Below are positions 3,224 to 19,233 of a DNA stretch of 20,000 bases, piece by piece. The position numbers and the translations under genes were made by a program. Below the pieces are notes generated by a model. It was not told the DNA's origin, did not search any database, and worked only from the letters and a program-made list of their open reading frames with translations. The DNA comes from an uncultured virus (IMG/VR IMGVR_UViG_3300024270_000055) (lineage: Duplodnaviria > Heunggongvirae > Uroviricota > Caudoviricetes), in IMG/VR virus record IMGVR_UViG_3300024270_000055, one strand, 5' to 3'. Positions within the stretch are counted from its first letter, which is position 1, and each line of letters starts with the position of its first letter.

Positions 3224-3423
3224 TGAGTAAAGAGTTTGTTAGTATCGTTAAAGCAGAGAATCCGTTTTGGAATTGTGTATGTGCAAGAGTCCGTTCCACG
3301 GGGGTGATAATTATGGTAAGAAACATTCATGCATTTGAGCCTGATGTTGTTCCCGAATGGGTGCAGATTGGTGCAAACGGAATAGAACTTAGACATTTCA
3401 AGCACCATGAATTAGAATTCTAA
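3223..3423 (+). CDS. hypothetical protein
   Basis: TAATG overlap, AAGGAGG upstream. Confidence 0.65.
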   Translation: MSKEFVSIVKAENPFWNCVCARVRSTGVIIMVRNIHAFEPDVVPEWVQIGANGIELRHFKHHELEF

Positions 3424-3435
3424 GGAGGAAACGAA

Positions 3436-3591
3436 ATGAAAATGACTACAGCAGCAGTATTAATAGAATTGTTTAATTGTGCAACAATCTGTTTCGGTGT
3501 TTATATCACTGAGTGCGGATGGTGGTTGTTGTTATTGTGTCTTATGAAAGTTAGTATCAGAGATAAAGATGATAAGGAGGAACAACCATGA
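3436..3591 (+). CDS. small membrane peptide (51 aa)
   Basis: MKMTTAAVLIELFNCATICFGVYITECGWWLLLLCL...; TAAGGAGG upstream. Confidence 0.6.
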   Translation: MKMTTAAVLIELFNCATICFGVYITECGWWLLLLCLMKVSIRDKDDKEEQP

Positions 3592-3686
3592 TATGTATAG
3601 CATACGCAATATGCGCCACCTTGTAGTGTTCGCAATACTAGGCGTGGTAGCATTTGTGAAATTCGTTAAAACAATTTTTGGAAAGG

Positions 3687-3899
3687 ATGATGAACAATAA
3701 CGAAGACCCTCAGAAAGTCTATCTTATCGCAAAGATAGAAGAGCTTGAAAAGAGTTTGAAAACTGCATTAACTCAATCGGACGAAGCAATCAAGCTCGCC
3801 AAGATGTACAAGGAGAAGTACGATGACTTGGTAGAAGAAGTCGAGATGTTTAACATGATGCCTTGGTACGAAAGGCTAATACATAAATTTGAAGTATAA
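3687..3899 (+). CDS. coiled-coil hypothetical protein
   Basis: Heptad-like charged helix ending MPWYERL; TAATG overlap with next gene. Confidence 0.7.
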   Translation: MMNNNEDPQKVYLIAKIEELEKSLKTALTQSDEAIKLAKMYKEKYDDLVEEVEMFNMMPWYERLIHKFEV

Positions 3900-4489
3900 T
3901 GGTAGAGATAAGCAATGTAAGAGTTTATGATTTAAGGGAGAGTGTAATAAGTTCTAGGAACGCCATGCGGATTGCACCTCCACAATATACGGATGAAGAA
4001 TTTGAAGCTGCACTACCGAGAGCAATCAAATTAGCAAAACTCGGTGGAGGAAGCGGACATAGTAATTTCAGAAAGGGTATCCGTGTGTCATTCGACATCA
4101 AATACCCGAACTATTTCTCTCCAGAGTTGCAAAGATATGGCTTTGTTGATATTGTATGCTCGTCTAGTAAGATGCACAAGTTAACCTCAATGGATATGGA
4201 CGCTTGCTTCAACGAGTATGTCACCGATGACACGAAGACCTACATGAAGGTGCTTTTGCAGAGGTACAACCAAGACAAGTCATACGAAAATTGGATGACA
4301 CTTCTTTCAAATTGTCCTCTTGGTATAGAATTGTTCATGAGGTGTTCAACCAACTACGAACAGCTTGCAACGATTTATAAGCAAAGAAAGCATCACCGAC
4401 TGAAAGATGATTGGGGCGCATTTTGCAAATTTATTGAGTCTCTTCCTTATGCCAACGAATTAATACTTTGTAATTATGATAAACCTTAG
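3899..4489 (+). CDS. divergent ThyX-like (flavin-dependent thymidylate synthase fold) protein
   Basis: GHSNF, ELQRYG-x7-S (cf. RHR-x7-S) and NYEQL...YKQR line up in order with ThyX motifs; near dUTPase. Confidence 0.55.
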   Translation: MVEISNVRVYDLRESVISSRNAMRIAPPQYTDEEFEAALPRAIKLAKLGGGSGHSNFRKGIRVSFDIKYPNYFSPELQRYGFVDIVCSSSKMHKLTSMDMDACFNEYVTDDTKTYMKVLLQRYNQDKSYENWMTLLSNCPLGIELFMRCSTNYEQLATIYKQRKHHRLKDDWGAFCKFIESLPYANELILCNYDKP

Positions 4490-5525: not shown

Positions 5526-6034
5526 AAGTTAGAATTAAGAAGTTACACAAGGATGCCGTTGTCCCTAGTTATGCACATAAGGGTGACGCTGGTATGGATT
5601 TGACAGCAATTGATTATTACTTTGACCTTGACGGGAATGTAGTTTACCACACGGGATTGGCAATCGAAATACCCGAAGGATATGTGGGTCTTGTATTCCC
5701 ACGCAGTTCAGTATGCAAGAATGACATTAGCCTTGCGAACGCTGTAGGGGTGATTGATTCGGGCTATCGTGGTGAAATCACGCTGAAGTTCAAGCCTACA
5801 TTGGTCTTTAATCCTAATGATGATACTGAATTTAAAGAAGGTAAATTCGATGTGCATAGCGGAGTGTCTATCCCTTATGATGAACGGATTCCTATTGAAC
5901 CTAGTTTCTATAAGACTGGTGAAAGAATCGGGCAGCTAATCATTATGCCTTATCATAAGATTGAGTTTGAAGAGGTGGAAGAACTAACCGAAACAGATAG
6001 GAACAATGGCGGATTCGGAAGCACAGGGAAGTAA
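5522..6034 (+). CDS. dut: trimeric dUTPase
   Basis: All five motifs: AGMDL, PRSS, GVIDSGYRGEI, ERIGQL, RNNGGFGSTG. Confidence 0.97.
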   Translation: MKVRIKKLHKDAVVPSYAHKGDAGMDLTAIDYYFDLDGNVVYHTGLAIEIPEGYVGLVFPRSSVCKNDISLANAVGVIDSGYRGEITLKFKPTLVFNPNDDTEFKEGKFDVHSGVSIPYDERIPIEPSFYKTGERIGQLIIMPYHKIEFEEVEELTETDRNNGGFGSTGK

Positions 6035-7747: not shown

Positions 7748-8158
7748 ATGCACAAGATTTTTTTAACAGGTAATGTGGGTCAAGACCCACAAGTAAAGAC
7801 CTTCGAAAACGGAGGTAAAGTAGCCAACTTCTCGGTAGCTGATACGGAAAGAGGCTACAAGACAAAGGATGGAAAGGAAATTCCAGACCACACCGAATGG
7901 TTCAGATGCGTAGTTCGTTCAAGTCTCGCAGATATTGTCGAGAAGTATCTGAAGAAGGGTATGCATGTTGAGATTATCGGTAAGCTCAGAACCCGTGAAT
8001 ATGAAAAGGACGGACAGAAGTATTCTACAACCGAACTTGTAGTTGAAGAGCTGAAGTTGCCGCCAAAGGGTGATTCCAATACTCAATCAGATACGAAGTC
8101 TGATTCTCAGTTTGTGACTCAAATCCAATCTGACGGCGGTTCGGATTTGCCTTTTTAG
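7748..8158 (+). CDS. ssb: single-stranded DNA-binding protein
   Basis: KIFLTGNVGQDP, VANFSVA, HTEWFR, GKLRTREY, acidic DLPF C-terminus. Confidence 0.97.
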   Translation: MHKIFLTGNVGQDPQVKTFENGGKVANFSVADTERGYKTKDGKEIPDHTEWFRCVVRSSLADIVEKYLKKGMHVEIIGKLRTREYEKDGQKYSTTELVVEELKLPPKGDSNTQSDTKSDSQFVTQIQSDGGSDLPF

Positions 8159-8212: not shown

Positions 8213-8422
8213 TCAATCACCAATATATCTTAATATGGGACATTCTCTCTTATACTCCTCAAGCGTGAGGACTTCTACTTCACCAACGATAACGTCTAGG
8301 TTAAGAACAATAGGGGCAAAAGAATAGCACACGAAGTCCTCGCCGTTGTTGATGAGAAAGTCGTTGCGCTCCTTCCATTTCAACACCCCGTTCTTATTGT
8401 CGAATTCTTTCCAAGTTGCCAT
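8213..8422 (-). CDS. small hypothetical protein, paralog of adjacent gene
   Basis: LKWK...F..YS...IVGEVEVLTLEEY. Confidence 0.7.
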   Translation of the reverse strand: MATWKEFDNKNGVLKWKERNDFLINNGEDFVCYSFAPIVLNLDVIVGEVEVLTLEEYKRECPILRYIGD

Positions 8423-8424
8423 AA

Positions 8425-8658
8425 TCAAGGGAATATACTACAAAAAGCGCAATCCTTGGTTTCTTCATTGTATTGCTCCATCGTGATTTCCTCCACATTG
8501 CCAACGACTTCATTAATGTCTACCAACGCTTCATAAGGAGAATACCTAAAACCTTCCGTAGACTTGTTCTCTCTATAGTTCCATGATTTTACTTTCCACT
8601 TCAATGCCATACCTTCATCGGCAATGAATCTCTTGAAATTAACGTCTTTTACTTCCAT
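8425..8658 (-). CDS. small hypothetical protein, paralog of adjacent gene
   Basis: Start MEVKD at 8658; LKWK...FRYS...VVGNVEEITMEQY. Confidence 0.75.
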   Translation of the reverse strand: MEVKDVNFKRFIADEGMALKWKVKSWNYRENKSTEGFRYSPYEALVDINEVVGNVEEITMEQYNEETKDCAFCSIFP

Positions 8659-8725
8659 AAATATTGCTTTTCTTACAGAACAAACAAAACTTGAAAATGT
8701 TTGTAGAAAGTTGTAGAATCTACAA

Positions 8726-8749
8726 GAAAAAAGCCCCAATTAAGGGGCT
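8726..8749 (-). terminator. intrinsic terminator
   Basis: AGCCCC-TTAATT-GGGGCT followed by U-tract on -. Confidence 0.8.
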
Positions 8750-8802
8750 AGTTTGCGGTTTGGCGACCCAGTAGTGATACCTGTAAGGATATTCTTGTGG
8801 TG

Positions 8803-8810
8803 CAAATATA
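8803..8810 (-). promoter_or_regulatory. -7 promoter element TATATTTG
   Basis: TAnnTTTG in intergenic DNA. Confidence 0.6.
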
Positions 8811-8849
8811 GAACATATTTCTGAAATTCTATACATCTCAGTTTGATTT

Positions 8850-8951
8850 TTACATATTCCACCACAAAATAAGCATCATCCGACAATAATCCGAATGACA
8901 CAACCAATCAATGCGGTCTAGGAGAATATCTATGTTATCAGAGGTAGACAT
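8850..8951 (-). CDS. 33-aa peptide
   Basis: MSTSDNIDILLDRIDWLCHSDYCRMMLILWWNM*, overlaps the end of the upstream gene. Confidence 0.5.
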   Translation of the reverse strand: MSTSDNIDILLDRIDWLCHSDYCRMMLILWWNM

Positions 8952-9328
8952 AATTTATAAAGGTATCTAGCTATATCTTCGTTGATGTAACACACTTCTT
9001 CACCTTCCAAATCCAATCCACAAGCCGATGCAATCTGAACTGATACGTGATGCATTTCATGTATTGCCAAGGCAAAGTATTCTCTTGGATTCTCACATCT
9101 AGCCCATACGGAGATTGTTTCCCTATATAGCGGATTGGTATATGTTATCCCGTTGTTCACCTTACCGCTTGTAAGGTTGCCTAGTGCGGTCATGTAGTTC
9201 TCTTTGTTGATTCCAATAGAATACAAGGCATCCATGATTTGACTCACATGATACCTTGTAATCGGCAGGAATATGGTAATATACCAAGGCTCTCCGTCAA
9301 CTATGATATGGAATCTACTCCGTATCAT
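8930..9328 (-). CDS. putative minimal zincin metalloprotease
   Basis: GITY...LAIHEMHH (HExxH) with downstream EEVCY. Confidence 0.7.
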   Translation of the reverse strand: MIRSRFHIIVDGEPWYITIFLPITRYHVSQIMDALYSIGINKENYMTALGNLTSGKVNNGITYTNPLYRETISVWARCENPREYFALAIHEMHHVSVQIASACGLDLEGEEVCYINEDIARYLYKLCLPLIT

Positions 9329-9740
9329 CCAAGAAATCGCTCCAATAAATAGGTTCTCCGTTGCCTACCATTGTCGAATACCATCTACGCATGGTAGTTC
9401 CGTCAGCTACATCGTCATCCTCAAAGATATACTTAGCAATAAGTAACTTTTGCTTATCGTCAAATGGAGATTTCTTCAAGTCACAAAAATACATGTGGTA
9501 GAGATACACGAAGTCATAGTTGATTTTCTTCTCCAGCTTGATTCCATGCTTGGTAAGAAGTTCCTCAACCTTTTCCTTCGGTGTATACTCCATCTGCTTT
9601 TCCTTATCGCCCTCCTTGTAGTACATCAATGACACTGCGAATCGACAAAGTTTTTCCGAAAAATGCCATGAATAGGAACTAAGGTACGCTATCTGCGACA
9701 TGGGACGCATATCGTATAAATCCAACGCTTGCTTACACAT
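9315..9740 (-). CDS. conserved Bacteroidales phage hypothetical protein
   Basis: YL..Y.WHF..KLC.FAVS.M, YD.VY..HM...D, DD.D..DG....RWY..M...G.PI.W.D motifs. Confidence 0.85.
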   Translation of the reverse strand: MCKQALDLYDMRPMSQIAYLSSYSWHFSEKLCRFAVSLMYYKEGDKEKQMEYTPKEKVEELLTKHGIKLEKKINYDFVYLYHMYFCDLKKSPFDDKQKLLIAKYIFEDDDVADGTTMRRWYSTMVGNGEPIYWSDFLDDTE

Positions 9741-9782
9741 ATATATAAGGTATTAAGAGGGGCTGTTACACCCCTCGGTTAA

Positions 9783-10052
9783 TTACATGAAACGTGGGTC
9801 GAACCACTGACCTTCCTGCGGGAACTGACTACCCATAGGATTCATCGGCTGCTGTCCCCAAAAGACACCGCCCGACTGCCCCATAGACTGACCGTTCCAG
9901 TTGCCTTCGTTCTGTCCCATACGCTGATAGCCACCACCACGGCTGTAACCACCACTGCGCTGACCCATCTTCTGAGCCTTCTGGTACAACTTCTGCGACT
10001 TATGAGCAAGCTCCTGTGCTTCCTCCATAATTTCTTTCAATTCTTCGTTCAT
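9783..10052 (-). CDS. Gly/Gln-rich low-complexity protein
   Basis: N-terminal helix then MGQ repeats. Confidence 0.8.
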   Translation of the reverse strand: MNEELKEIMEEAQELAHKSQKLYQKAQKMGQRSGGYSRGGGYQRMGQNEGNWNGQSMGQSGGVFWGQQPMNPMGSQFPQEGQWFDPRFM

Positions 10053-10058
10053 AACTTA

Positions 10059-10481
10059 CTAATTTAAAAGATTCTTGAATTCTAAAATATCCTCCGAAGT
10101 GAATCTCAGCCTAGAAGTTCCGACAAGCATATCAAGGAATATGTTTCTTGGCAAATCAACCGCCAACTCTCCGTTGCCTACCGTCAAATGGAAGCCGCCC
10201 ATATCATACTCGCTGGGCTTCATTTCCTTGAACATCTGAGCCATCCCGTCAATCATGACATCGGTATCAACCACGCCGTCTTTAGAGACAAACATGAATA
10301 AATTATCAATACCTTGGTTCAGCATGGAATCATACCTGTTCATCGCATTGTTCAAACCGTTCTTTGCAAACGTCCGACCCATTGCGCTGTTAGGAAACAA
10401 CTCGTCAATCTTGGACTCTCCCCACGATTGGAAAGCGGTCTTAATCTCGCCCTTGAATCTGTTTACATCCTCAATTCTCAT
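10059..10481 (-). CDS. hypothetical protein
   Basis: 140 aa, ATGA-coupled to upstream gene. Confidence 0.85.
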   Translation of the reverse strand: MRIEDVNRFKGEIKTAFQSWGESKIDELFPNSAMGRTFAKNGLNNAMNRYDSMLNQGIDNLFMFVSKDGVVDTDVMIDGMAQMFKEMKPSEYDMGGFHLTVGNGELAVDLPRNIFLDMLVGTSRLRFTSEDILEFKNLLN

Positions 10482-10981
10482 TTCTTCTTGTTTTTTGGTT
10501 CACGTTTCATGTTCAAATAATCGTCATAGCTCATGTGGCTGTACTTAGCCTTGTATTCTTGGAAGTCGTTCAATTCATTGTCAACTTCCATAGATGCCGA
10601 CTTCTTCACTCGTTTGGTCAAAGTCAAATGATGGTCTAGCGCATCCTTGCCTTCCTTCGATTGCTCGATGATAGGTCGTAGCATCTGAAGCTGTGCCGCT
10701 TGAATCAATCCCATGATTCTATTGTTGCTTTCTACCCACTCATCGTTTGAAGTGACAATCTGATACTCCTTCTCGGTCATTCCTTGAATGATTTTGTCAA
10801 TCTCATCCCAAACGGGTGTCTGACTTTGTTGTGGCTGCTGTTGCTGCATCATCTGCTGCTTGTACTGAGCCAACTTAGCCTGTCGCATTTCAAGCTCCTT
10901 CTCCATCATTGCGATGTCACTTGAATAGTCCCGTGAACCTAGCAACGGGTCGTTGTTGATAAAAATATTGTTTCCTGCCAT
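10478..10981 (-). CDS. hypothetical helical protein with Gln-rich segment
   Basis: DPLL, poly-Q, PVWDEID, basic tail. Confidence 0.85.
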   Translation of the reverse strand: MAGNNIFINNDPLLGSRDYSSDIAMMEKELEMRQAKLAQYKQQMMQQQQPQQSQTPVWDEIDKIIQGMTEKEYQIVTSNDEWVESNNRIMGLIQAAQLQMLRPIIEQSKEGKDALDHHLTLTKRVKKSASMEVDNELNDFQEYKAKYSHMSYDDYLNMKREPKNKKK

Positions 10982-11085
10982 AATTTACCTTGATACTTGT
11001 CGGAGGGTGGGGTTAACCACCCTTCTTTGTTCTACGCCTTGATTTCTTCGAAGCACAGGAACTACTATAAGGTACATCTTTAGCG

Positions 11086-11943
11086 TTACAGGAACAATCC
11101 ATCTGTATTTCTTGTTTTTGGAACCTTTATAGTCAAAGGAATGTCTTCTGATGTCTTGTATCTCCATATATAGCCAGCAATAGTCCTAAACTTGCCTCTG
11201 GCGCACATCCCTAAATGCCTGCTATTGTATATTGTTTGTGGTTCACGAATATTCTGCCACTCTTTGATGAAAACACCTTCATCAGAATATTGAAGTATCG
11301 GCTTCCACTTTGATGGTACTTTTTTACCTATTTTTGCTTCTGCCGCATTCTTCCTATGCTCTTCAGACTTAGGAACGCCTCTCATGGTTTCACTAATTTT
11401 GCGCTTAGTTTCATCCTTTTGAGCGTGTCCTTTCCCTTTAAGAGCTTCAGAAATTTTCTTCTTCCTTTCTTCAGAGAATTTTCTTCCAAGTAGTTTTGGA
11501 CGTTTTATTCCTATAAATTTCTTTCCAAAATTAGGGTTGTTTTCTCCTTTCATCCTTTCGGAATATTGTTTGCGCCTTTCCTCAGTCCATTCTTTGCTCA
11601 TCCTTTCCCCCAAACCAAAAGCTCCTTTCCCACCTTTCGTAAGATTATACCCTTCTTCTACGGTGTTATATTTCTCGATATAGAATATTTCTTTCTCATC
11701 AAGATGGCGGTCTAGCAACTTTTTATCTTCAAATGGTTCAGATTCATAAAGAATTTCAAAATCAAAAGCGTCTATTCCGAACTCAAGAAATGCTTTTACT
11801 ATCGGTCTTTCAAGGGTTTTACCTGTTGCTTTCCTAACAACAGCTCTATGTTCACACATTCTTTTTTTAATGTCCATTGTCCGACCAATATAGGATTTCC
11901 CGTTTATCCTATTAACCAATCTGTAAACTACTCCTTTTCTCAT
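11086..11943 (-). mobile_element. free-standing GIY-YIG homing endonuclease with NUMOD3 repeats and NUMOD1-like C-terminus
   Basis: GVVY..YIG..R..H..E..YN catalytic domain; SEERKKKISE/DETKRKISE/SEEHRK repeats; KPILQY...FIKEW; own promoter. Confidence 0.92.
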
Positions 11944-11969
11944 ACATTTTATAATATTATGCGTCTTTA

Positions 11970-11977
11970 CAAAGATA
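11970..11977 (-). promoter_or_regulatory. -7 promoter element TATCTTTG for the endonuclease
   Basis: 26 nt upstream of ATG 11943. Confidence 0.7.
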
Positions 11978-12053
11978 AGTAATTACAGATAATTAATACT
12001 ATAACAACGCTTATTTTTTAACCCTTTTAGTATTCCTTTTTGTTACCGCTTTC

Positions 12054-12821
12054 TTAGCCTGCGGCTGCTGTACTTTGGTTATTGCAGCAGCAGTAACTCG
12101 TAACACCTGTAACGGTGGGAGTAAGCGGCAATGTATTGACACCCTTGATATTGCGACAATCAAGTCTATCAACATAGTTAATTACCTTTTCCAGACCTTG
12201 ATTCAACTTACACATGATGAGTTCATCTTGGTACGGTCTAACAGCCGAATTGATAGCCACCTGTGCCTTCAAGTCGCAAAGTTCCTTCTTGATTTCATCG
12301 TCCTTGTCACGAGTGTACTTGTACTGAGAGAACAATTCATCGTTGATACGGTTGTTCACTCGGTCAATGTTGTCTCGGTTGTCCTTGTACAAGTTGAAGT
12401 CTGCTGTGATTTGGCTCTGATACAAACCGAACTTTTCAGCAATGTCGGTGTTGCGTTGAGCAGCCAACAATTCCAATGTGTTCACCTTCTGACCCCACAA
12501 TGTGTTAGTGAGCTTCAAAACGTCGTCACACTCATGTTGGTACACCTCAAATGTAGTAGGAGCGACACAACCGCCACCCAAGCCACCATTGATGTTTACG
12601 TTGGTCGGAACACCGCTTGAAGAACCACCGCCGCCAAGCAAATTACTAAGACCACCACCATTACGATTCCATAAGCTAATAAGCCCCAAAGCAGTACCGG
12701 CTATGCCGAAGCCCAATGCAGTTCCTGCTTTAGCTCTTGTAGAATCATGACCATAGCCATTGTTGTAGCTACCATAGTTTTCTCCGCACTCACGGATAAA
12801 GCTACCTTGTTCTTTAATCAT
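12054..12821 (-). CDS. conserved gut-phage hypothetical protein: Gly-zipper hydrophobic segment, coiled coil, Cys-rich tail
   Basis: GTALGFGIAGTALGL; AEKFGLY..Q..ADF.LYK; RPYQD; LP.TPTVTG..SYCCC. Confidence 0.85.
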   Translation of the reverse strand: MIKEQGSFIRECGENYGSYNNGYGHDSTRAKAGTALGFGIAGTALGLISLWNRNGGGLSNLLGGGGSSSGVPTNVNINGGLGGGCVAPTTFEVYQHECDDVLKLTNTLWGQKVNTLELLAAQRNTDIAEKFGLYQSQITADFNLYKDNRDNIDRVNNRINDELFSQYKYTRDKDDEIKKELCDLKAQVAINSAVRPYQDELIMCKLNQGLEKVINYVDRLDCRNIKGVNTLPLTPTVTGVTSYCCCNNQSTAAAG

Positions 12822-12905
12822 AACTTTAAAGATTAATAATTAAACATACACAGCCTTCGTTGGCTGATATGCAAAGAACTTGATAAGTCCGTGTAAGGGA
12901 AATCA

Positions 12906-12963
12906 GTTTGTGGATGGTTCGTGGAAAGTTTGTAGACTTTCCAATTTGTAAAGTTTTGGAATG
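12906..12963. repeat. 11-bp phased direct repeats, candidate operator
   Basis: GTTTGTGGATG / GTTCGTGGAAA / GTTTGTAGACT at 12906, 12917, 12928 plus two degenerate copies. Confidence 0.7.
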
Positions 12964-12981
12964 AAATGAAGAGTTTTGGGA

Positions 12982-13076
12982 TTAAGTTGATTTTTATTTC
13001 AAAAGTTTAAACTTAAGTTGATAGAATCTCCAAAAGTTGATAACTTAAGTTGATTTTTATTCCAAAAGTTGATAAC
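12982..13076. repeat. three tandem 31-32 bp repeats
   Basis: TTAAGTTGAT-n8-CAAAAGTT...AAC at 12982, 13013, 13045. Confidence 0.9.
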
Positions 13077-13134
13077 TTTTGATTGAGAAACCATCTTTTT
13101 GATTTAATCTTTTGATTTTCATGAAAACTCAATC

Positions 13135-13165
13135 AAAAAAAAGCGGTGACAATCCGTCACCACTT
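13135..13165 (-). terminator. intrinsic terminator
   Basis: AAGTGGTGAC-GGATT-GTCACCGCTT then U-tract on -. Confidence 0.85.
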
Positions 13166-13337
13166 AGAAACTCCTTCAACAGCTTGGTTGATGAGATGCA
13201 CATGGATGTCAGCTCCATGCAAACTTCCGACCTTACGATTCGGCACACCATTTGAGCGTCATTCCCATTATCAAGCGGGATGATAAGCTTGTGTGGAGTT
13301 ACGTTGAGCCAAGTTGCGCACCTTTGCTCTTCACATG
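13135..13337 (-). ncRNA. candidate ~200-nt structured RNA
   Basis: Promoter TATATTTG at 13342-13349, multi-hairpin body, terminator; the only ORF spans both promoter and terminator. Confidence 0.55.
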
Positions 13338-13351
13338 GATGCAAATATAGT

Positions 13352-13382
13352 AAAAAAAGGCGTACCTACAAAAGATACGCCC
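13352..13382 (-). terminator. terminator of hicAB
   Basis: GGCGTA...TACGCC stem with U-tract on -. Confidence 0.7.
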
Positions 13383-13416
13383 AAGTGGTATTATAAAGGT
13401 AGCCTCACGGCTTAAA

Positions 13417-13824
13417 TTAAACTGTAATGCACATCATTTCTTCCGCTAGAGTTCTTAATCCGCTTGCAATCTTTTCAGATTGCCGTTTTCTAGGTTTGCT
13501 TCGACCTGCCGCATAATGCGCTAGCTGCTTTTGATTAATCCCCGTAATATTCTCCAATGCAGAATAGGAGAATATACCTTGGTAGAACTGCAATAGGCTT
13601 TGTACATCAAACTTGTACTCTAATTCATAGTCTTCATCAAATACAGACGGATAGGCAATACCGTCCTCTTTAGCACAATCAATATAGAATTGTATACTTT
13701 CAATCACCTCTTTCTTAAATTCGGAGAAAGAGCCAGAGCAAGCAACAATCCAATTGGGAAGGAGTTCACAATTTCCACTATATCCCCTTTCCGTTTTAGC
13801 TGTTGTGATAGTTACTTTTTTCAT
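13417..13824 (-). CDS. hicB: HicB-family antitoxin with C-terminal HTH
   Basis: N-terminal HicB-like region, ALENITGINQKQLAHYAAG..KPR HTH; directly downstream of hicA. Confidence 0.88.
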   Translation of the reverse strand: MKKVTITTAKTERGYSGNCELLPNWIVACSGSFSEFKKEVIESIQFYIDCAKEDGIAYPSVFDEDYELEYKFDVQSLLQFYQGIFSYSALENITGINQKQLAHYAAGRSKPRKRQSEKIASGLRTLAEEMMCITV

Positions 13825-13874
13825 TGTTATTTCGCTTTATACATAAATGCCTCTTTTCAAGAGAACGGTCTGGG

Positions 13875-14072
13875 TTAGAAAACTAACCCCGACTGTTCTT
13901 CAATACTGCTTAGCAGATTTCCCCATACATCATCAGAAGGATGTCCGTTAACTGTAACAGTCCCCTTTTTTGATGGATGCTTGAATTGGCGATGGCTGCC
14001 TTTTTGCCTTGCAATGTACCAACCATCCTTTTCAAGCGTCTTAATAATTTTGATAACCTTTATTACCTTCAT
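13875..14072 (-). CDS. hicA: HicA mRNA interferase toxin
   Basis: LEKDGW...RQKGSHRQFKHPSKKGTVTV. Confidence 0.95.
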   Translation of the reverse strand: MKVIKVIKIIKTLEKDGWYIARQKGSHRQFKHPSKKGTVTVNGHPSDDVWGNLLSSIEEQSGLVF

Positions 14073-14097
14073 ATTTAATACCACTTGAAATACAATG

Positions 14098-14150
14098 CAA
14101 AGATAGTGATTTTACTATTATTTGCAAAATAATTCGTAGTAAATTTACTA
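14098..14150 (-). promoter_or_regulatory. hicAB promoter with two palindromic operators
   Basis: TATCTTTG 14098-14105, TTTG 14125-14128 (19-nt spacer); TAGTGATTTTACTA 14104-14117 and perfect palindrome TAGTAAATTTACTA 14137-14150. Confidence 0.8.
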
Positions 14151-14429
14151 TTAATATGCAGAATTTTTCAATTCCTTGTACATTTCCTTCAATCCCCACC
14201 TAAATTTACACCTCTCATGAAAACTGTTCCTAGCCTTGTTAACTAGAGCTACACTCCAGCCGCTAATCTCGGCTATCTGCCTGTCTGAATACCTTTCGCT
14301 TAGTACGGCGATAACCAAGTATCTGGCATCTACACATTCCTCTTGATGGGAATTGCACACTTTCCCCTCCGAAAGTTCGGTCATTTCACACACTTTCCCT
14401 AGGATGGAATCAAAATAATCTCTTTTCAT
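14151..14429 (-). CDS. stand-alone DnaA domain IV/TrpR-like HTH protein
   Basis: IL..VC....L....V......ECVDARYL....L....SDRQIA...G.S...V pattern parallels DnaA C-terminal domain. Confidence 0.7.
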   Translation of the reverse strand: MKRDYFDSILGKVCEMTELSEGKVCNSHQEECVDARYLVIAVLSERYSDRQIAEISGWSVALVNKARNSFHERCKFRWGLKEMYKELKNSAY

Positions 14430-14436
14430 AAACAAA

Positions 14437-14545
14437 CCCCGTAAGTTAATTGTTAAGACTTCAAAGCCGCTACAATCAACTGACGAGGGATGTTGTTCTG
14501 ATAATCATTTCTACAAAGTGCGGCTTTTCTTTTTTATGCCGCTTG
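14437..14545 (-). promoter_or_regulatory. structured leader with alternative pairings in front of the HTH gene
   Basis: 14472-14489 pairs with 14437-14453; 14520-14527 pairs with 14463-14470 or with 14538-14542. Confidence 0.55.
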
Positions 14546-14586
14546 GTGCATTTAGTATATAAAGCGAGCTACACTTAACCTAACGG

Positions 14587-15084
14587 TTAATTAACTCTCG
14601 ATTTCAATTTCCAACAAAGATAGGCAATTATTATCAAAGTTCCAATACCTAAAACTTCACCGAATCTCTCCCATACAGAAGATACACCTTGATTTTCTGT
14701 AACGGTCTCGGTTTCCACCTTTTGCGTAAACCCACGAAAATGGTTCAGACTATCCCGTGAGTGGATTTCTATTCTTTTTTGCTCTTCTTCGGAAACCACT
14801 TCGTCAGAATCTTGTGCAATCTTCCTTTCTGTCTCGGTCTTTTCGGTAACAGCACCCGTATCTTTATCATACTTCGTTATGGTTATATGTTCGGTTATGG
14901 TTAGCTTTGACTTGTCTATCCCGATTTTAAGTATCCTAGTAGTATCTACAAGTGCTTGATACTTAGTGTAGTTGGTTTCCGTCTTTTCTTTGCTCACGAA
15001 ATTATTTTCATGAGCAACCTTCTTCGTCTTGCAGCTGCACATCAGCAAGATGAATACAAATATACTTATCCAAAAACTTTTCAT
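14587..15084 (-). CDS. putative unimolecular spanin
   Basis: Lipoprotein signal (ILLMCS-CKTKK), Thr/Glu-rich beta-type middle, C-terminal TM with basic tail; follows endolysin. Confidence 0.75.
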   Translation of the reverse strand: MKSFWISIFVFILLMCSCKTKKVAHENNFVSKEKTETNYTKYQALVDTTRILKIGIDKSKLTITEHITITKYDKDTGAVTEKTETERKIAQDSDEVVSEEEQKRIEIHSRDSLNHFRGFTQKVETETVTENQGVSSVWERFGEVLGIGTLIIIAYLCWKLKSRVN

Positions 15085-15085
15085 A

Positions 15086-15607
15086 TCAATCTTCAAATTG
15101 CAACGAATGTATCCTGTTAATCCAGCCTCGAAGGAATTTCTGATTGGCTGGGCGAGTTTTACATATCCTTTTGAAAAACTCCATCCTAGCCATCTGAATC
15201 TGACCGAACAGAGGAAGTGGACTGTGTGAATTGATAGCCGACAAGGTTATGTTACCGATGATACCGTCAGTCTTGACACCCAAGACTTTTTGAACTTCCT
15301 TGACTGCCGTAGCCGTACCGCTATGCCAAGCCCAATCGACAATCGCATTGGCTACACTTTGGCTCTCGATGAAGTCAGCCTTGCAAGCATCCCAATACAT
15401 CGTCTTCAATATATCGGTAAACTCTTCATCGGACAATCTTATCAAGTCACCGATGGTAGGAGCTGGAAGACCTCTTCTCTTCCTGTACAGCTTATAGGTC
15501 TTGAAGCATACGCCCTTACAAGTAGCTCCTCCAAGGTCGTCGGGGTCATTGACGAAATCACCTTCCCACTTCAAGATGAACGGAACAAGTTTATTTACAT
15601 CTGCCAT
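15086..15607 (-). CDS. endolysin, glycoside hydrolase family 108 with peptidoglycan-binding C-terminus
   Basis: ILKWEGDFVNDPDDLGGAT..GV, DWAWHSG, DGIIG..TL.AIN, KFLRGWINR. Confidence 0.93.
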   Translation of the reverse strand: MADVNKLVPFILKWEGDFVNDPDDLGGATCKGVCFKTYKLYRKRRGLPAPTIGDLIRLSDEEFTDILKTMYWDACKADFIESQSVANAIVDWAWHSGTATAVKEVQKVLGVKTDGIIGNITLSAINSHSPLPLFGQIQMARMEFFKRICKTRPANQKFLRGWINRIHSLQFED

Positions 15608-15609
15608 AA

Positions 15610-16248
15610 TCAAAACGCATCAAATTCGTTATCCTGATACTCTGGTAGGTTAAACTGGATGTTCATTGCCGCTTCGTGCATAATCTTATGCAACTCGCTT
15701 TCTGAACACTTGGGCTTATCAAGGAACTCACAGAAGATAGAACCGACCCAATCCCTAGATGAGTTCAACCGCTTTACAGCAGCAGCTATCGTACCGTTAC
15801 TTGACAAGAGCGACTTGGCTACACGGTCTTCAACCTGTTCATCTATGTTGTCGAAATACATGAAGATGTTCTCGGTCATCATTTTGCTGAACAGAGGAAC
15901 TTCACTCATTTCGAGCTTCTGCACGTTCATCTTCATGCCCTCAACTCCGTTAGCCTTGACTTCAAACTGAATGGAAAGAAATGCAATATGCCCCAACGGG
16001 TGAGGTTGCACTATATAAACCCTGTCAGCTTCGGTAGCCATCATTATCTTATACAATTCACCCAACACCTTGCCGATATTGGCACTGCGTTTATAGCTAT
16101 TCGTCCTCTCTTGATTCCTGAAACGCTCAATCTTCAAGTCGGTCAGCTTGTCCTTTGTTTTCTGATTATAGGCAAACCATCCTGTCAGAAATGTCGAAAG
16201 AGCACCACAAATTGAGCCTACAATACCTACTATCATTTCTCCTTCCAT
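15610..16248 (-). CDS. putative holin: single N-terminal TM plus GAF-like domain
   Basis: Immediately upstream of endolysin; TM IVGIVGSICGALSTFLTGWF; L..I...TEADR.Y...HP and WVGSI..EF...AA..I GAF pattern. Confidence 0.65.
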   Translation of the reverse strand: MEGEMIVGIVGSICGALSTFLTGWFAYNQKTKDKLTDLKIERFRNQERTNSYKRSANIGKVLGELYKIMMATEADRVYIVQPHPLGHIAFLSIQFEVKANGVEGMKMNVQKLEMSEVPLFSKMMTENIFMYFDNIDEQVEDRVAKSLLSSNGTIAAAVKRLNSSRDWVGSIFCEFLDKPKCSESELHKIMHEAAMNIQFNLPEYQDNEFDAF

Positions 16249-17774: not shown

Positions 17775-18875
17775 TTAGTTTATTTTTCCCGAACGATAAG
17801 CCTTCACATTCCAAACATTACTTTCGAACTTGTAACGGGAAACGGCTATGCTTTTTGATACGCCATACTTCTCGGCTTCGTCAGCTATACACTTTGCAAT
17901 GACATGAGGGTAAGTACTCTTCGGTCGAACGCTCATAATGGATTTCCAAACGCTTACAGGTATCAACATATCCCTAGCATAGTCATTGGCTTCCTTCTCG
18001 TAAGGGCTTTCTTCGTAGCCGTCGTAAGAGATGAAACCCATACACCCGTCACCCAAATGATGCTCGATATGACATAACTCATGCAATATAGTAAATGCCA
18101 AAGAATCAATATCATTCCTTCTGTATGTCACCACAATTACAGGTCTGCCGTATCTTATTGTGCAATATGCATCTATCGGAGCCTTCTCCATCTTCTCGAC
18201 AAAGCAATAACCTATTCCACGACCGTTAAGGCAATCCTGTATGGATTTCTTTGTCAGCAACCCTTTGTTTGCCATGCTTGCTATTTCCACTGCGGAAGAG
18301 TGTGCATTCCCTTTTTCGTATTCCGTATCAAGAACCACATCCCTTGCTGCCATATTGGCAAACACAATCCATGTACGCATATTCTTCTCGTCTATCTGAC
18401 ACTTCGAACTATGCTTGAAGAAACCCTCGTCCTGAGAATCAATTGCAGCTTCCGAGCAAGCGTTCCCTACCATTCTTCTCATCTTGGAAAGCCTGTCCTT
18501 TGCCGTTATGCAACGGATATCCAACCGCTTGTACAAGATAGCGGTATTGAAGAATGAAGAAAAGGACTGTTCTTCATAGATGGCTTGCTGTTCTTCCTTG
18601 TTTCGCTTGGCGATAGCTTGCATGTCGTAATAATAATCGTCTTGAAGCCCGACCCATGTCTTGTAGCTGATGCCAAGATACTCTTCCAACTTTAGAGCCA
18701 ACTCCTTTGTGATGTCACGCTTCCCCTTAATCACCGCATTCAGATGTGTGGCTTGCATGCCTATCATCTTGGCAAAGTCCTTCTGTTTGATTCCACGAGC
18801 TTCAAGTTCGGCTCCAAGGGATGAACCCGGGTGAACCGCCACAAACGGAATGATTCTTTCATTTTTTGTTTCCAT
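17775..18875 (-). CDS. higA: HigA-family antitoxin (XRE HTH) fused to ImmA/IrrE metallopeptidase
   Basis: HPGSSL..EL..RGIKQKDFA...LNAVIKGKRDIT..LA..LE; FTILHELCH...EKEANDYA. Confidence 0.9.
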   Translation of the reverse strand: METKNERIIPFVAVHPGSSLGAELEARGIKQKDFAKMIGMQATHLNAVIKGKRDITKELALKLEEYLGISYKTWVGLQDDYYYDMQAIAKRNKEEQQAIYEEQSFSSFFNTAILYKRLDIRCITAKDRLSKMRRMVGNACSEAAIDSQDEGFFKHSSKCQIDEKNMRTWIVFANMAARDVVLDTEYEKGNAHSSAVEIASMANKGLLTKKSIQDCLNGRGIGYCFVEKMEKAPIDAYCTIRYGRPVIVVTYRRNDIDSLAFTILHELCHIEHHLGDGCMGFISYDGYEESPYEKEANDYARDMLIPVSVWKSIMSVRPKSTYPHVIAKCIADEAEKYGVSKSIAVSRYKFESNVWNVKAYRSGKIN

Positions 18876-19188
18876 AATGCTCTTGGTTTAATTCTATCAA
18901 TTTAATTCTAATTCCACCTTCATGCTCTGTAAAAATCAGTCTTTCGACCCTGTTCCTTATCGGACGGACTGAGCTGTAGCCACTATAGTCATATTTCAAT
19001 TTCTCGTAGCACATCCAACTGAACTGTGCCAATTCGGATACACTTTCAACTCGTTGCATGTGGCTTATTACAAGCAACAGCCTTTCTATAAAAGCCTTAT
19101 CCTTGCATAGTTTCTTATATGCTTTCTTGGTAGTCTTGCCCGTCTCGACAATTTCTTGCAACCCAATATCTTCAAATTCTACAACCAT
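18859..19188 (-). CDS. higB: HigB/RelE-family toxin
   Basis: VEFED..L......YEKLKYDYSGYSSVR...RVERLIF...IEL..EHYG; overlaps higA start. Confidence 0.85.
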   Translation of the reverse strand: MVVEFEDIGLQEIVETGKTTKKAYKKLCKDKAFIERLLLVISHMQRVESVSELAQFSWMCYEKLKYDYSGYSSVRPIRNRVERLIFTEHEGGIRIKLIELNQEHYGNKK

Positions 19189-19202
19189 ATCTAAAAATTT
19201 GA

Positions 19203-19233
19203 TATGCAAATATACTAAAAGTTATGCAAATAT
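19203..19233 (-). promoter_or_regulatory. higBA promoter with repeated 11-mer
   Basis: TATATTTG at 19207-19214; TATGCAAATAT at 19203 and 19223. Confidence 0.6.

Follow-up and report, generated by a model that had tools for sequence, protein, structure and literature searches.

Domain IV, the DNA-binding domain of the replication initiator DnaA, is the closest described relative of a 92-amino-acid (aa) helix-turn-helix (HTH) protein encoded by the uncultured virus IMGVR_UViG_3300024270_000055, a gut Bacteroides phage. The protein was found in a 20,000-nucleotide stretch of the viral DNA, here called the window, where its gene lies upstream of an array of direct repeats phased at 11 bp. The array precedes a promoter with a non-consensus -7 box, and downstream of it is the gene for a 255-aa protein. 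The DnaA domain IV structures 1J1V and 3PVP share the predicted fold over the whole 92-aa protein, and the repeats of the window and its close relatives contain TCCAC, the center of the DnaA box TTATCCACA. Unlike DnaA sites, the repeats are in a predicted promoter and probably not in an origin, and they vary by lineage. Unlike DnaA, the protein has an acidic SNxEEC loop at the place where DnaA is said to carry a basic one.

Lone domain-IV proteins have already been annotated in phages, by similarity only. They include the 'DnaA protein' of Cellulophaga phage phi19:1, a protein of Tenacibaculum phage Gundel_1, and gp38 of Bacteroides phage C3_41T2LP, a 'chromosomal replication initiator protein' that is 38% identical to the 92-aa protein and has the same gene context. 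Phage proteins of 90-200 aa in BFVD have the same fold (TM 0.65-0.85), some of them named 'DnaA C-terminal'. In literature listings and abstracts we found no function, target site or promoter link reported for such proteins. To our knowledge, hardly anything has been described of how gut Bacteroides phages control their transcription.

Two phage activators offer a parallel at the level of the promoter. At lambda pRE, direct repeats for CII straddle the -35 element, and at T4 middle promoters the MotA box replaces it. The locus in the window would resemble both in that a poor upstream element is replaced or flanked by sites for a small phage protein made from an ordinary promoter. Unlike CII and MotA, it has a protein of another fold, at least four same-orientation sites at 11-bp phase, and a promoter of the Bacteroidota -7/-33 type. 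In many lineages the sites also overlap the regulator's own coding end. The consensus of the Bacteroidota sigma-A promoter is TTTG at -33 and TAnnTTTG at -7, about 20 nt apart.

The genes downstream resemble the gp61-gp56 block of crAssphage (Carjivirus communis). The 255-, 167- and 140-aa genes of the window are homologues of gp61, gp60 and gp59, with the order kept. The window's block ends with a 132-aa protein carrying a HEMHH motif, and crAssphage gp56 is annotated as a small zincin; the parallel is positional only. No HTH homologue of crAssphage is among the matches listed, and no TTTG-type promoter or repeats were found upstream of gp61.

The 92-aa protein

The gene (14151..14429, minus strand) follows the lysis cassette, past a GH108 endolysin (15086-15613, minus strand) and a spanin-like gene. 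It had been placed there by a first-pass annotation made from the sequence alone. An AlphaFold2 (AF2) model built on 32 relatives has six helices, with a pLDDT of 93.4 and a pTM of 0.86. In a Foldseek search of the PDB the top 10 matches were DnaA throughout (TM 0.74-0.80), the E-values being merely ~0.01. VIA-align superimposed 89 of the 92 residues on 1j1v_A, the Escherichia coli DnaA domain IV on a DnaA box (Z 13.9, root-mean-square deviation 2.0), and 89 residues on 3pvp_B, the Mycobacterium tuberculosis DnaA domain (Z 13.4, deviation 2.0-2.1). The next families, DeoR and TrpR, reached Z 5.6 at most. Trp repressor, which has a related helical HTH core, scored 4.6-5.3 over ~60 residues, far below DnaA. 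Chance can bring helical models to Z 13 in this comparison; the DnaA match takes in the entire domain, and its score is far higher than those of the rows that follow. The modelled fold is that of DnaA domain IV, as the first-pass annotation had proposed, and not a generic HTH.

In sequence the protein shows little resemblance to DnaA. Sequence identity to DnaA domain IV is 15-17%, and Pfam gives weak matches to Trp_repressor (E 0.024) and HTH_23 alone. PDB sequence and profile searches missed DnaA, which fold comparison alone reached, their best matches being unrelated HTH proteins at E of at least 0.1, and no family in PHROGs or NCBIfam matches the protein. A six-frame search of the window's own record for Bac_DnaA_C gave no match at E ≤1. 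Weak Bac_DnaA_C matches were obtained for 11 of 27 family members, the best (E 0.0015) still under the cut-off. The bases of the DnaA box are reportedly contacted in E. coli by R399 of the basic loop and by D433, H434, T435 and H439; at the corresponding places the HTH family has, by eye, SNxEEC and SVxLVNK.

There are 458 close relatives of the 92-aa protein among metagenome proteins, and none has a Pfam domain. A profile search of 1.84 billion representatives returned 682 clusters at E ≤0.001, of which 180 reached E ≤1e-10. The best 150 of the 682 relatives are 47-149 aa long, and a search among longer proteins found no long forms of the family. As judged from these sequences, the HTH protein stands alone, without the AAA+ domain III or domains I-III, in keeping with the lone domain that was first described.

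The repeat array and its promoter

The motif GTTYGTRGA occurs at 12906, 12917 and 12928, the exact 11-bp phasing upstream of the 255-aa gene that had been noted before, and also at 8699 and 1038. These five copies compare with 0.56 expected in the window, and 0 of 200 shuffles reached five; TTGTAGAA is present seven times against 1.26 expected, again reached by 0 of 200 shuffles. The three TCCACGAAC-type repeats (12906-12936) lie upstream of the non-consensus -7 box, and all the promoter elements are on the minus strand. R1 is TCTACAAACTT, read on the gene strand (12926..12936), R2 is TCCACGAACCA (12915..12925) and R3 is TCCACAAACTG (12904..12914). A proximal degenerate site, R4 (TACACGGACTT, 12885..12895), lies 19 nt past R3 inside the promoter spacer. 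The -7 box is GTTCTTTG (12872..12879). It is followed by a hairpin at the 5' end of the predicted transcript (12845..12871, core 12851-12866; minimum free energy -13.1 kcal/mol), which the terminator scan also flagged as terminator-like. Promoter positions assume the convention that the G of TTTG is at -4, which puts the center of R3 at about -42. The lone GTTTGTAGA (1038-1046), on the opposite strand and where two genes meet, was taken as chance. A reading of GAAC...CGTC as a site for an extracytoplasmic-function sigma factor was rejected, as its spacings (10 or 26 nt) do not fit.

Related loci were collected via the 255-aa protein and via an alignment of the HTH protein. Loci whose HTH is at least 49% identical to that of the window make up the close family, group A. 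Eleven of these reach the next module gene and could be evaluated (window/L001, L002, L003, L007, L008, L086, L088, L089, L091, L092 and L099/G002); six further close loci end too early. R1-R3, R4, the -7 box and the hairpin are in one register in all 11 evaluable loci, and they are found in more distant lineages as well, which bears out the expectation that the repeats would be conserved upstream of homologues. The layout in the close loci is three 11-bp units, an 8-base spacer, the degenerate fourth unit, 5 bases, the octamer and the hairpin. Their 33 repeat sites give the consensus TTTCCACGAACTT. R4 has an identical position in 11/11 loci, with the consensus CATCCATGTACTT, and the -7 octamer is GTTCTTTG, GATTTTTG or GTTATTTG. 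The first gene downstream varies among loci (255-aa type, MSDKTYVF type and others) and the promoter stays constant.

A wider set of 26 loci from 12 lineages was anchored on TTTG; loci of one lineage are not independent. The anchors were curated by hand because the automatic picker took coding-region hairpins in several loci. TA is found in none of the 26 octamers, and G is the first base in 24. TAnnTTTG is thus missing beside the repeats throughout, as had been noted for the window. TTTG at -33 is present in one locus, so that the canonical sigma-A combination of TA in the -7 octamer and TTTG at -33 is not what these promoters have. The best autocorrelation lag was 11 in 21/26 promoter regions vs 1/26 control coding regions, and in about 9 of 12 when counted by lineage. 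A hairpin is predicted 5-9 nt past TTTG in 26/26 loci; its stems differ, and in 15/26 it is stabler than 95% of random windows. In the distant lineages a strict search for three copies detected no repeats; they emerged only after anchoring on the -7 box. What is conserved is a predicted site array that overlaps or abuts the -33 region of a weak promoter, beside a phage regulator gene.

The HTH gene lies directly upstream of the repeat promoter in essentially all fetched loci, and this adjacency of gene and array is kept in >100 loci. Inserts between the two leave the array intact. The window has hicAB there, as have L014/L029 with the orientation reversed, and C3_41T2LP has an HNH endonuclease; a KilA-like gene and a 293-aa gene are further inserts. 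A two-unit pattern scan found one array per record in three of three whole or partial phage records. One of these, G002, is a complete temperate genome of 40,685 bp with 123-bp terminal repeats, arranged in the order structural genes, lysis, HTH, array, module, integrase. No HTH was found on two contigs that carry a relative of the 255-aa gene (L004 and L005, 75% and 60% complete); both relatives have a canonical TATCTTTG promoter and no repeats.

The cores of the repeats differ between lineages and all sit in the same register. The core is TCCAC in lineage A (recognition helix SGWSVxLVNKAxN), GmCAC in lineage B (LSRTCANKIRN), GATAC in C3_41T2LP (LSRPCTNKIRN), GCAAT in lineage C (LTRQAVNYIRN) and GCTCA in lineage E ((K)LPRQSVNRIRN). 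It is ACAAy in lineages F, G and I (common QQxVNxLKN), GTAAm in D and J (common TRPxVC), and TACAC in L126, a prophage in a Bacteroides metagenome-assembled genome (LSNACVNKIRN). The helix segments for E, TRPxVC, QQxVNxLKN and L126 were assigned by hand and reasoning, not by a computed pairing of helix and locus. A common recognition-helix type goes with a common core across lineages, in line with the co-variation that the first-pass annotation had suggested looking for. The arrays of A, B, C (L014/L029), C3_41T2LP and L126 lie outside coding sequence and yet are lineage-specific. Since the copies are alike within an array and the arrays differ between lineages, a lineage-specific binder is indicated, and a phage protein is favored over host DnaA.

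A regulon of two operons with autoregulation had been proposed initially. The motif is indeed present a second time as the pair GATTCTACAAC TTTCTACAAAC (8699..8720, minus strand), past a terminator (8749-8732) and before the genes of the 77- and 69-aa paralogues; TTGTAGAA is found there at 8701 and 8711 on the plus strand. The spacing of this pair is 10 bp, and it does not have the -7 box and hairpin geometry of the main promoter. It is absent in L002, and L086 keeps a 47-nt stretch at 85% with one good copy. As a target of the regulator the pair is doubtful. The HTH gene's leader does contain the inverted motif in the window (TTTGTAGAAA, 14508-14517, with the TTGTAGAA copy at 14509-14516); this motif is not conserved in L002, L007, L092 and others, and reappears as GTAGTAGAAA in five relatives. 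With the pair kept in part at best, the leader motif not conserved, and one array in each of the three records scanned, the proposed regulon was not upheld, and the arrangement is read from its sequence as a single-promoter switch.

Proposed activation and competing explanations

Our preferred reading, to which as a whole we give a probability of about 0.5, is that the lone domain IV binds R1-R4 and activates the defective promoter of the module. The 92-aa protein would be made from its own canonical Bacteroides-type promoter. Several monomers would probably bind the direct repeats R1-R3 (at about -64, -53 and -42) and R4 (about -23), sites that lie on either side of a T-rich remnant of the -33 element. 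The bound protein would recruit host RNA polymerase, or stabilize it, on a promoter unable to work alone, the likely defect being G instead of TA in the -7 box together with the missing TTTG at -33. The transcript would open with a stabilizing hairpin and encode the 255-(endonuclease)-167-140-89-141-132(-33) aa module, a block common to crAss-like phages and probably virion-associated.

Several observations weigh against this reading. The 92-aa protein does not reach the Pfam threshold of PF08299 (Bac_DnaA_C), with no match at E ≤0.1. Set beside E. coli DnaA, it appears to have kept neither the basic loop nor contact residues of the DHTTV type. The curated anchors were picked on TTTG and hairpin, and the 26/26 counts for these two features are partly built in. 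The last codons of the HTH gene contain the repeats, out of frame, in lineages E, F, G, I, D, J and H; because of this overlap, the agreement of helix and core in these lineages is confounded by descent. The group-A sites agree with the DnaA box at 4-8 of its 9 positions, and host DnaA could bind some of them. Finally, the placement of R4 in the spacer between -33 and -7, and of R3 over the -33 zone, would also suit a repressor.

Repression of the module promoter by the 92-aa protein bound to the repeats, either as a timing brake or as a silencer in lysogens, nevertheless seems unlikely to us. The relatives are temperate, G002 having its integrase beside the module, and the canonical promoter of the HTH gene could be on in lysogens. 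A repressor would be expected to act on a strong promoter, yet TA is missing from every curated octamer and the -33 TTTG from all loci save one, and relatives lacking the HTH drive the same gene from a canonical promoter.

We hold it to be just as improbable that another factor, either host DnaA in the case of the DnaA-box-like group A or another phage protein, binds the repeats and that the lone domain IV competes with host DnaA at oriC or at DnaA-regulated genes. Four of the 33 group-A sites do match TTATCCACA at 8/9 positions, 11-bp same-orientation arrays are like the arrays of low-affinity DnaA sites in E. coli oriC, and phage records give such proteins the name 'chromosomal replication initiator'. 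The cores, however, vary among lineages that all apparently infect Bacteroidales, a variation that a host protein of constant specificity leaves unexplained, and the adjacency of gene and array in >100 loci also speaks against this reading. That the array is a replication origin or other DNA-transaction site (iterons and DnaA boxes) with incidental promoter features is very improbable: DnaA-box-like boxes do lie next to AT-rich direct repeats (12979-13073), but L002 and L086 lack the latter and L003 and G002 have unrelated ones, the spacing from array to -7 box and hairpin is fixed to the base, and the replication and recombination genes of the complete genome G002 are 9-14 kb away.

Activation of a single promoter by the lone domain IV may be one case of a general arrangement. 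This wider proposal is tentative and falls a little short of even odds. In a large family of Bacteroidota-phage proteins the initiator DNA-binding domain would have been repurposed as single-promoter activators, each lineage co-evolving its own 11-bp-phased array in place of the -33 element, often out of frame in the regulator's coding end. The result would be a natural orthogonal set of activators and promoters for a module shared with crAss-like phages. Sequence alone is enough to recognize this promoter type, and the regulator likely dedicated to it, in >100 phage contigs. If activation by the lone domain IV is confirmed, phages have turned a replication-initiator DNA-binding domain into a transcription factor, the label 'chromosomal replication initiator' on these genes needs correcting, and the timing of production of the crAssphage gp61-gp59-type module becomes easier to approach. 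The system would also supply compact, possibly orthogonal activator-promoter pairs for Bacteroides genetics. Cultured phages with a homologue, C3_41T2LP on B. uniformis and BS162P1 on B. salyersiae, make direct testing feasible. As to the first-pass annotation, what it had observed is confirmed and its interpretation is partly supported.

The module and its surroundings

The window corresponds to bases 3398-23397 of a 26,330-bp contig (40% GC) with a CheckV completeness estimate of 34%. Plus-strand genes reach 8158, among them a dUTPase-like gene and a single-stranded-DNA-binding protein (SSB) gene (7748-8158), and the minus strand is coding from 8213 rightwards. The minus-strand order is an HTH_3/M78 regulator with a toxin-like partner, membrane proteins, the endolysin, the spanin-like gene, the 92-aa gene, hicA, a HicB-like gene, two terminators, the repeats, the 255-aa gene, a GIY-YIG/NUMOD3 endonuclease, and genes of 167, 140, 89, 141, 132, 33, 77 and 69 aa. 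The genes first listed for the module are all present; a 285-aa homing endonuclease inside the operon had been overlooked, as had hicA, the HicB-like gene and the two terminators between the HTH gene and the repeats. No GenBank phage matched 8213-14545 by megablast, the tRNA scan found no tRNA, and Rfam gave no relevant match at the gathering score and at E ≤1.

The first module gene (12054..12821, minus strand) encodes a Gly-rich membrane/coiled-coil protein of 255 aa. By tblastn it matches 26 phage records, mostly of crAss-like phages, at 37-45% identity, among them Carjivirus communis gp61, annotated 'putative tail protein'. ESM Atlas clusters near it are named 'tail protein family' (score 0.96). 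The rest of the module (8930..10981, minus strand) consists of the 167-, 140-, 89-, 141- and 132-aa genes, with synteny across loci. In a local iterative search the 167-aa protein matched gp60 (E 1e-40) and the 140-aa protein gp59 (E 3e-29), these values being relative to a small set of open reading frames (ORFs). The initial description of the module as not recognizable virion structure needs correcting in view of the gp61, gp60 and gp59 homologues. The 141-aa protein is DUF7841 (E 3.5e-18), and the C3_41T2LP homologue of the HEMHH protein is annotated as a PolyVal metallopeptidase. In their passages on such peptidases, Iyer et al. 2017 (PMC5512222) tie them to proteins packaged into virions or injected. 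Our guess from these similarities is that the module may be virion-associated.

PDB sequence searches with the 255-, 167-, 140- and 132-aa proteins gave no real match, the WD40 rows reflecting Gly-rich low complexity and contributing no matching stretch. The AF2 model of the 140-aa protein is poor (pLDDT 65, pTM 0.45). RNA-library contigs of relatives, from one study, cover 9.2-12.8 kb, and one of 1,411 nt bridges 10911-12322; this is a weak hint of module transcription. These contigs do not cover 13061-14747 (HTH, hicAB), which proves nothing, as they come from relatives and a single study.

The endonuclease (11086..11943, minus strand; Pfam and PHROG matches) is a mobile insert found in L003 and not in L002. 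Mobile endonucleases gather around the first module gene, of the GIY-YIG type in the window and L003 and of the HNH I-HmuI-like type in C3_41T2LP (L121, 9392-10012). In L004 (about 5745-6000), an intron-like insertion of ~260 bp splits the 255-aa homologue relative to L005. The 89-aa protein (9783-10052, minus strand) has an acidic helical N-terminus and an RGG/GQ-rich disordered tail, and analogous low-complexity proteins fill its slot in other lineages (96 aa in L011, 99 aa in L064). The 33-aa ORF (8850-8951, minus strand) is probably a real small protein; its peptide LLDRxDxxCHSDxCRMMxxLWWN is kept in L002, L003 and L086, and distant lineages have 44-47% identity. The 77- and 69-aa paralogues (8213..8658, minus strand) end the minus-strand block, convergent with the SSB gene. 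Ahead of them, a canonical TATATTTG box (8803-8810) is followed ~55 nt later by the terminator at 8749-8732 (8726-8810, minus strand), and the stretch could produce a ~70-nt transcript or act as an attenuator. It is absent in L002, and one contig from a DNA run skips 8745-8918.

At the other end of the minus-strand block, 17775-19209 (minus strand) encodes the HTH_3 and Peptidase_M78 (ImmA/IrrE-like) protein of 366 aa and, ahead of it, a 116-aa protein that weakly matches a toxin PHROG. To the right of the window (24274-26096 of the contig) are a 401-aa reverse-transcriptase-like ORF and a 118-aa four-helix-bundle (Avd-like) ORF, whose translations, by eye, suggest a diversity-generating retroelement.

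The leader of the HTH gene (14430..14622, minus strand) is ~190 nt long and has a canonical -7 box, TATCTTTG (14615-14622), within the 3' end of the spanin-like gene. TAnnTTTG is found 160-232 nt upstream of the HTH start in 13/15 evaluable close relatives. The leader is conserved in blocks, AAAGAAAGCCGCAC ... GTRCGGCTTTGA ... CTTAACAAT ... TTTTGTTTATG, and may control HTH expression; a long-range GCCGC/GCGGC pairing is possible in it.

Between the HTH gene and the array, hicA (13875-14072, minus strand; HicA_toxin Pfam E 7e-20, phrog_353 toxin) and the HicB-like gene (13417-13824, minus strand) are an inserted toxin-antitoxin pair outside the switch. In L002 hicAB is absent and the HTH terminator abuts the repeats. 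Pairs of the hicAB type occur at this junction in two lineages, in opposite orientations; in L014/L029 (about 3300-4100) the insertion appears to have taken the place of the HTH C-terminus, so that the repeats no longer lie in coding sequence. In the window, three AT-rich direct repeats of ~32 bp (AACTTAAGTTGAT...CCAAAAGTTGAT, 12979-13073) are found immediately upstream of the array. Their slot is empty in L002 and L086 and filled by unrelated sets in L003 (GTGGTAAGGTT) and G002/L099 (AATCGCAY).

A candidate structured small RNA of ~207 nt (13135..13349, minus strand), between hicB and the repeats, has its own canonical -7 box, TATATTTG (13342-13349), and a strong terminator (13165-13141). In the interval from HTH gene to array it would be an optional insert. 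It has no Rfam match, and homologues are present in five other loci (L088, L089, L092, L008 and L007). RNAalifold with the six sequences predicted 32 pairs, 10 of them with compensatory changes. Its promoter is of the TAnnTTTG type, like those of the HTH gene and of L004/L005 and unlike the repeat promoter.

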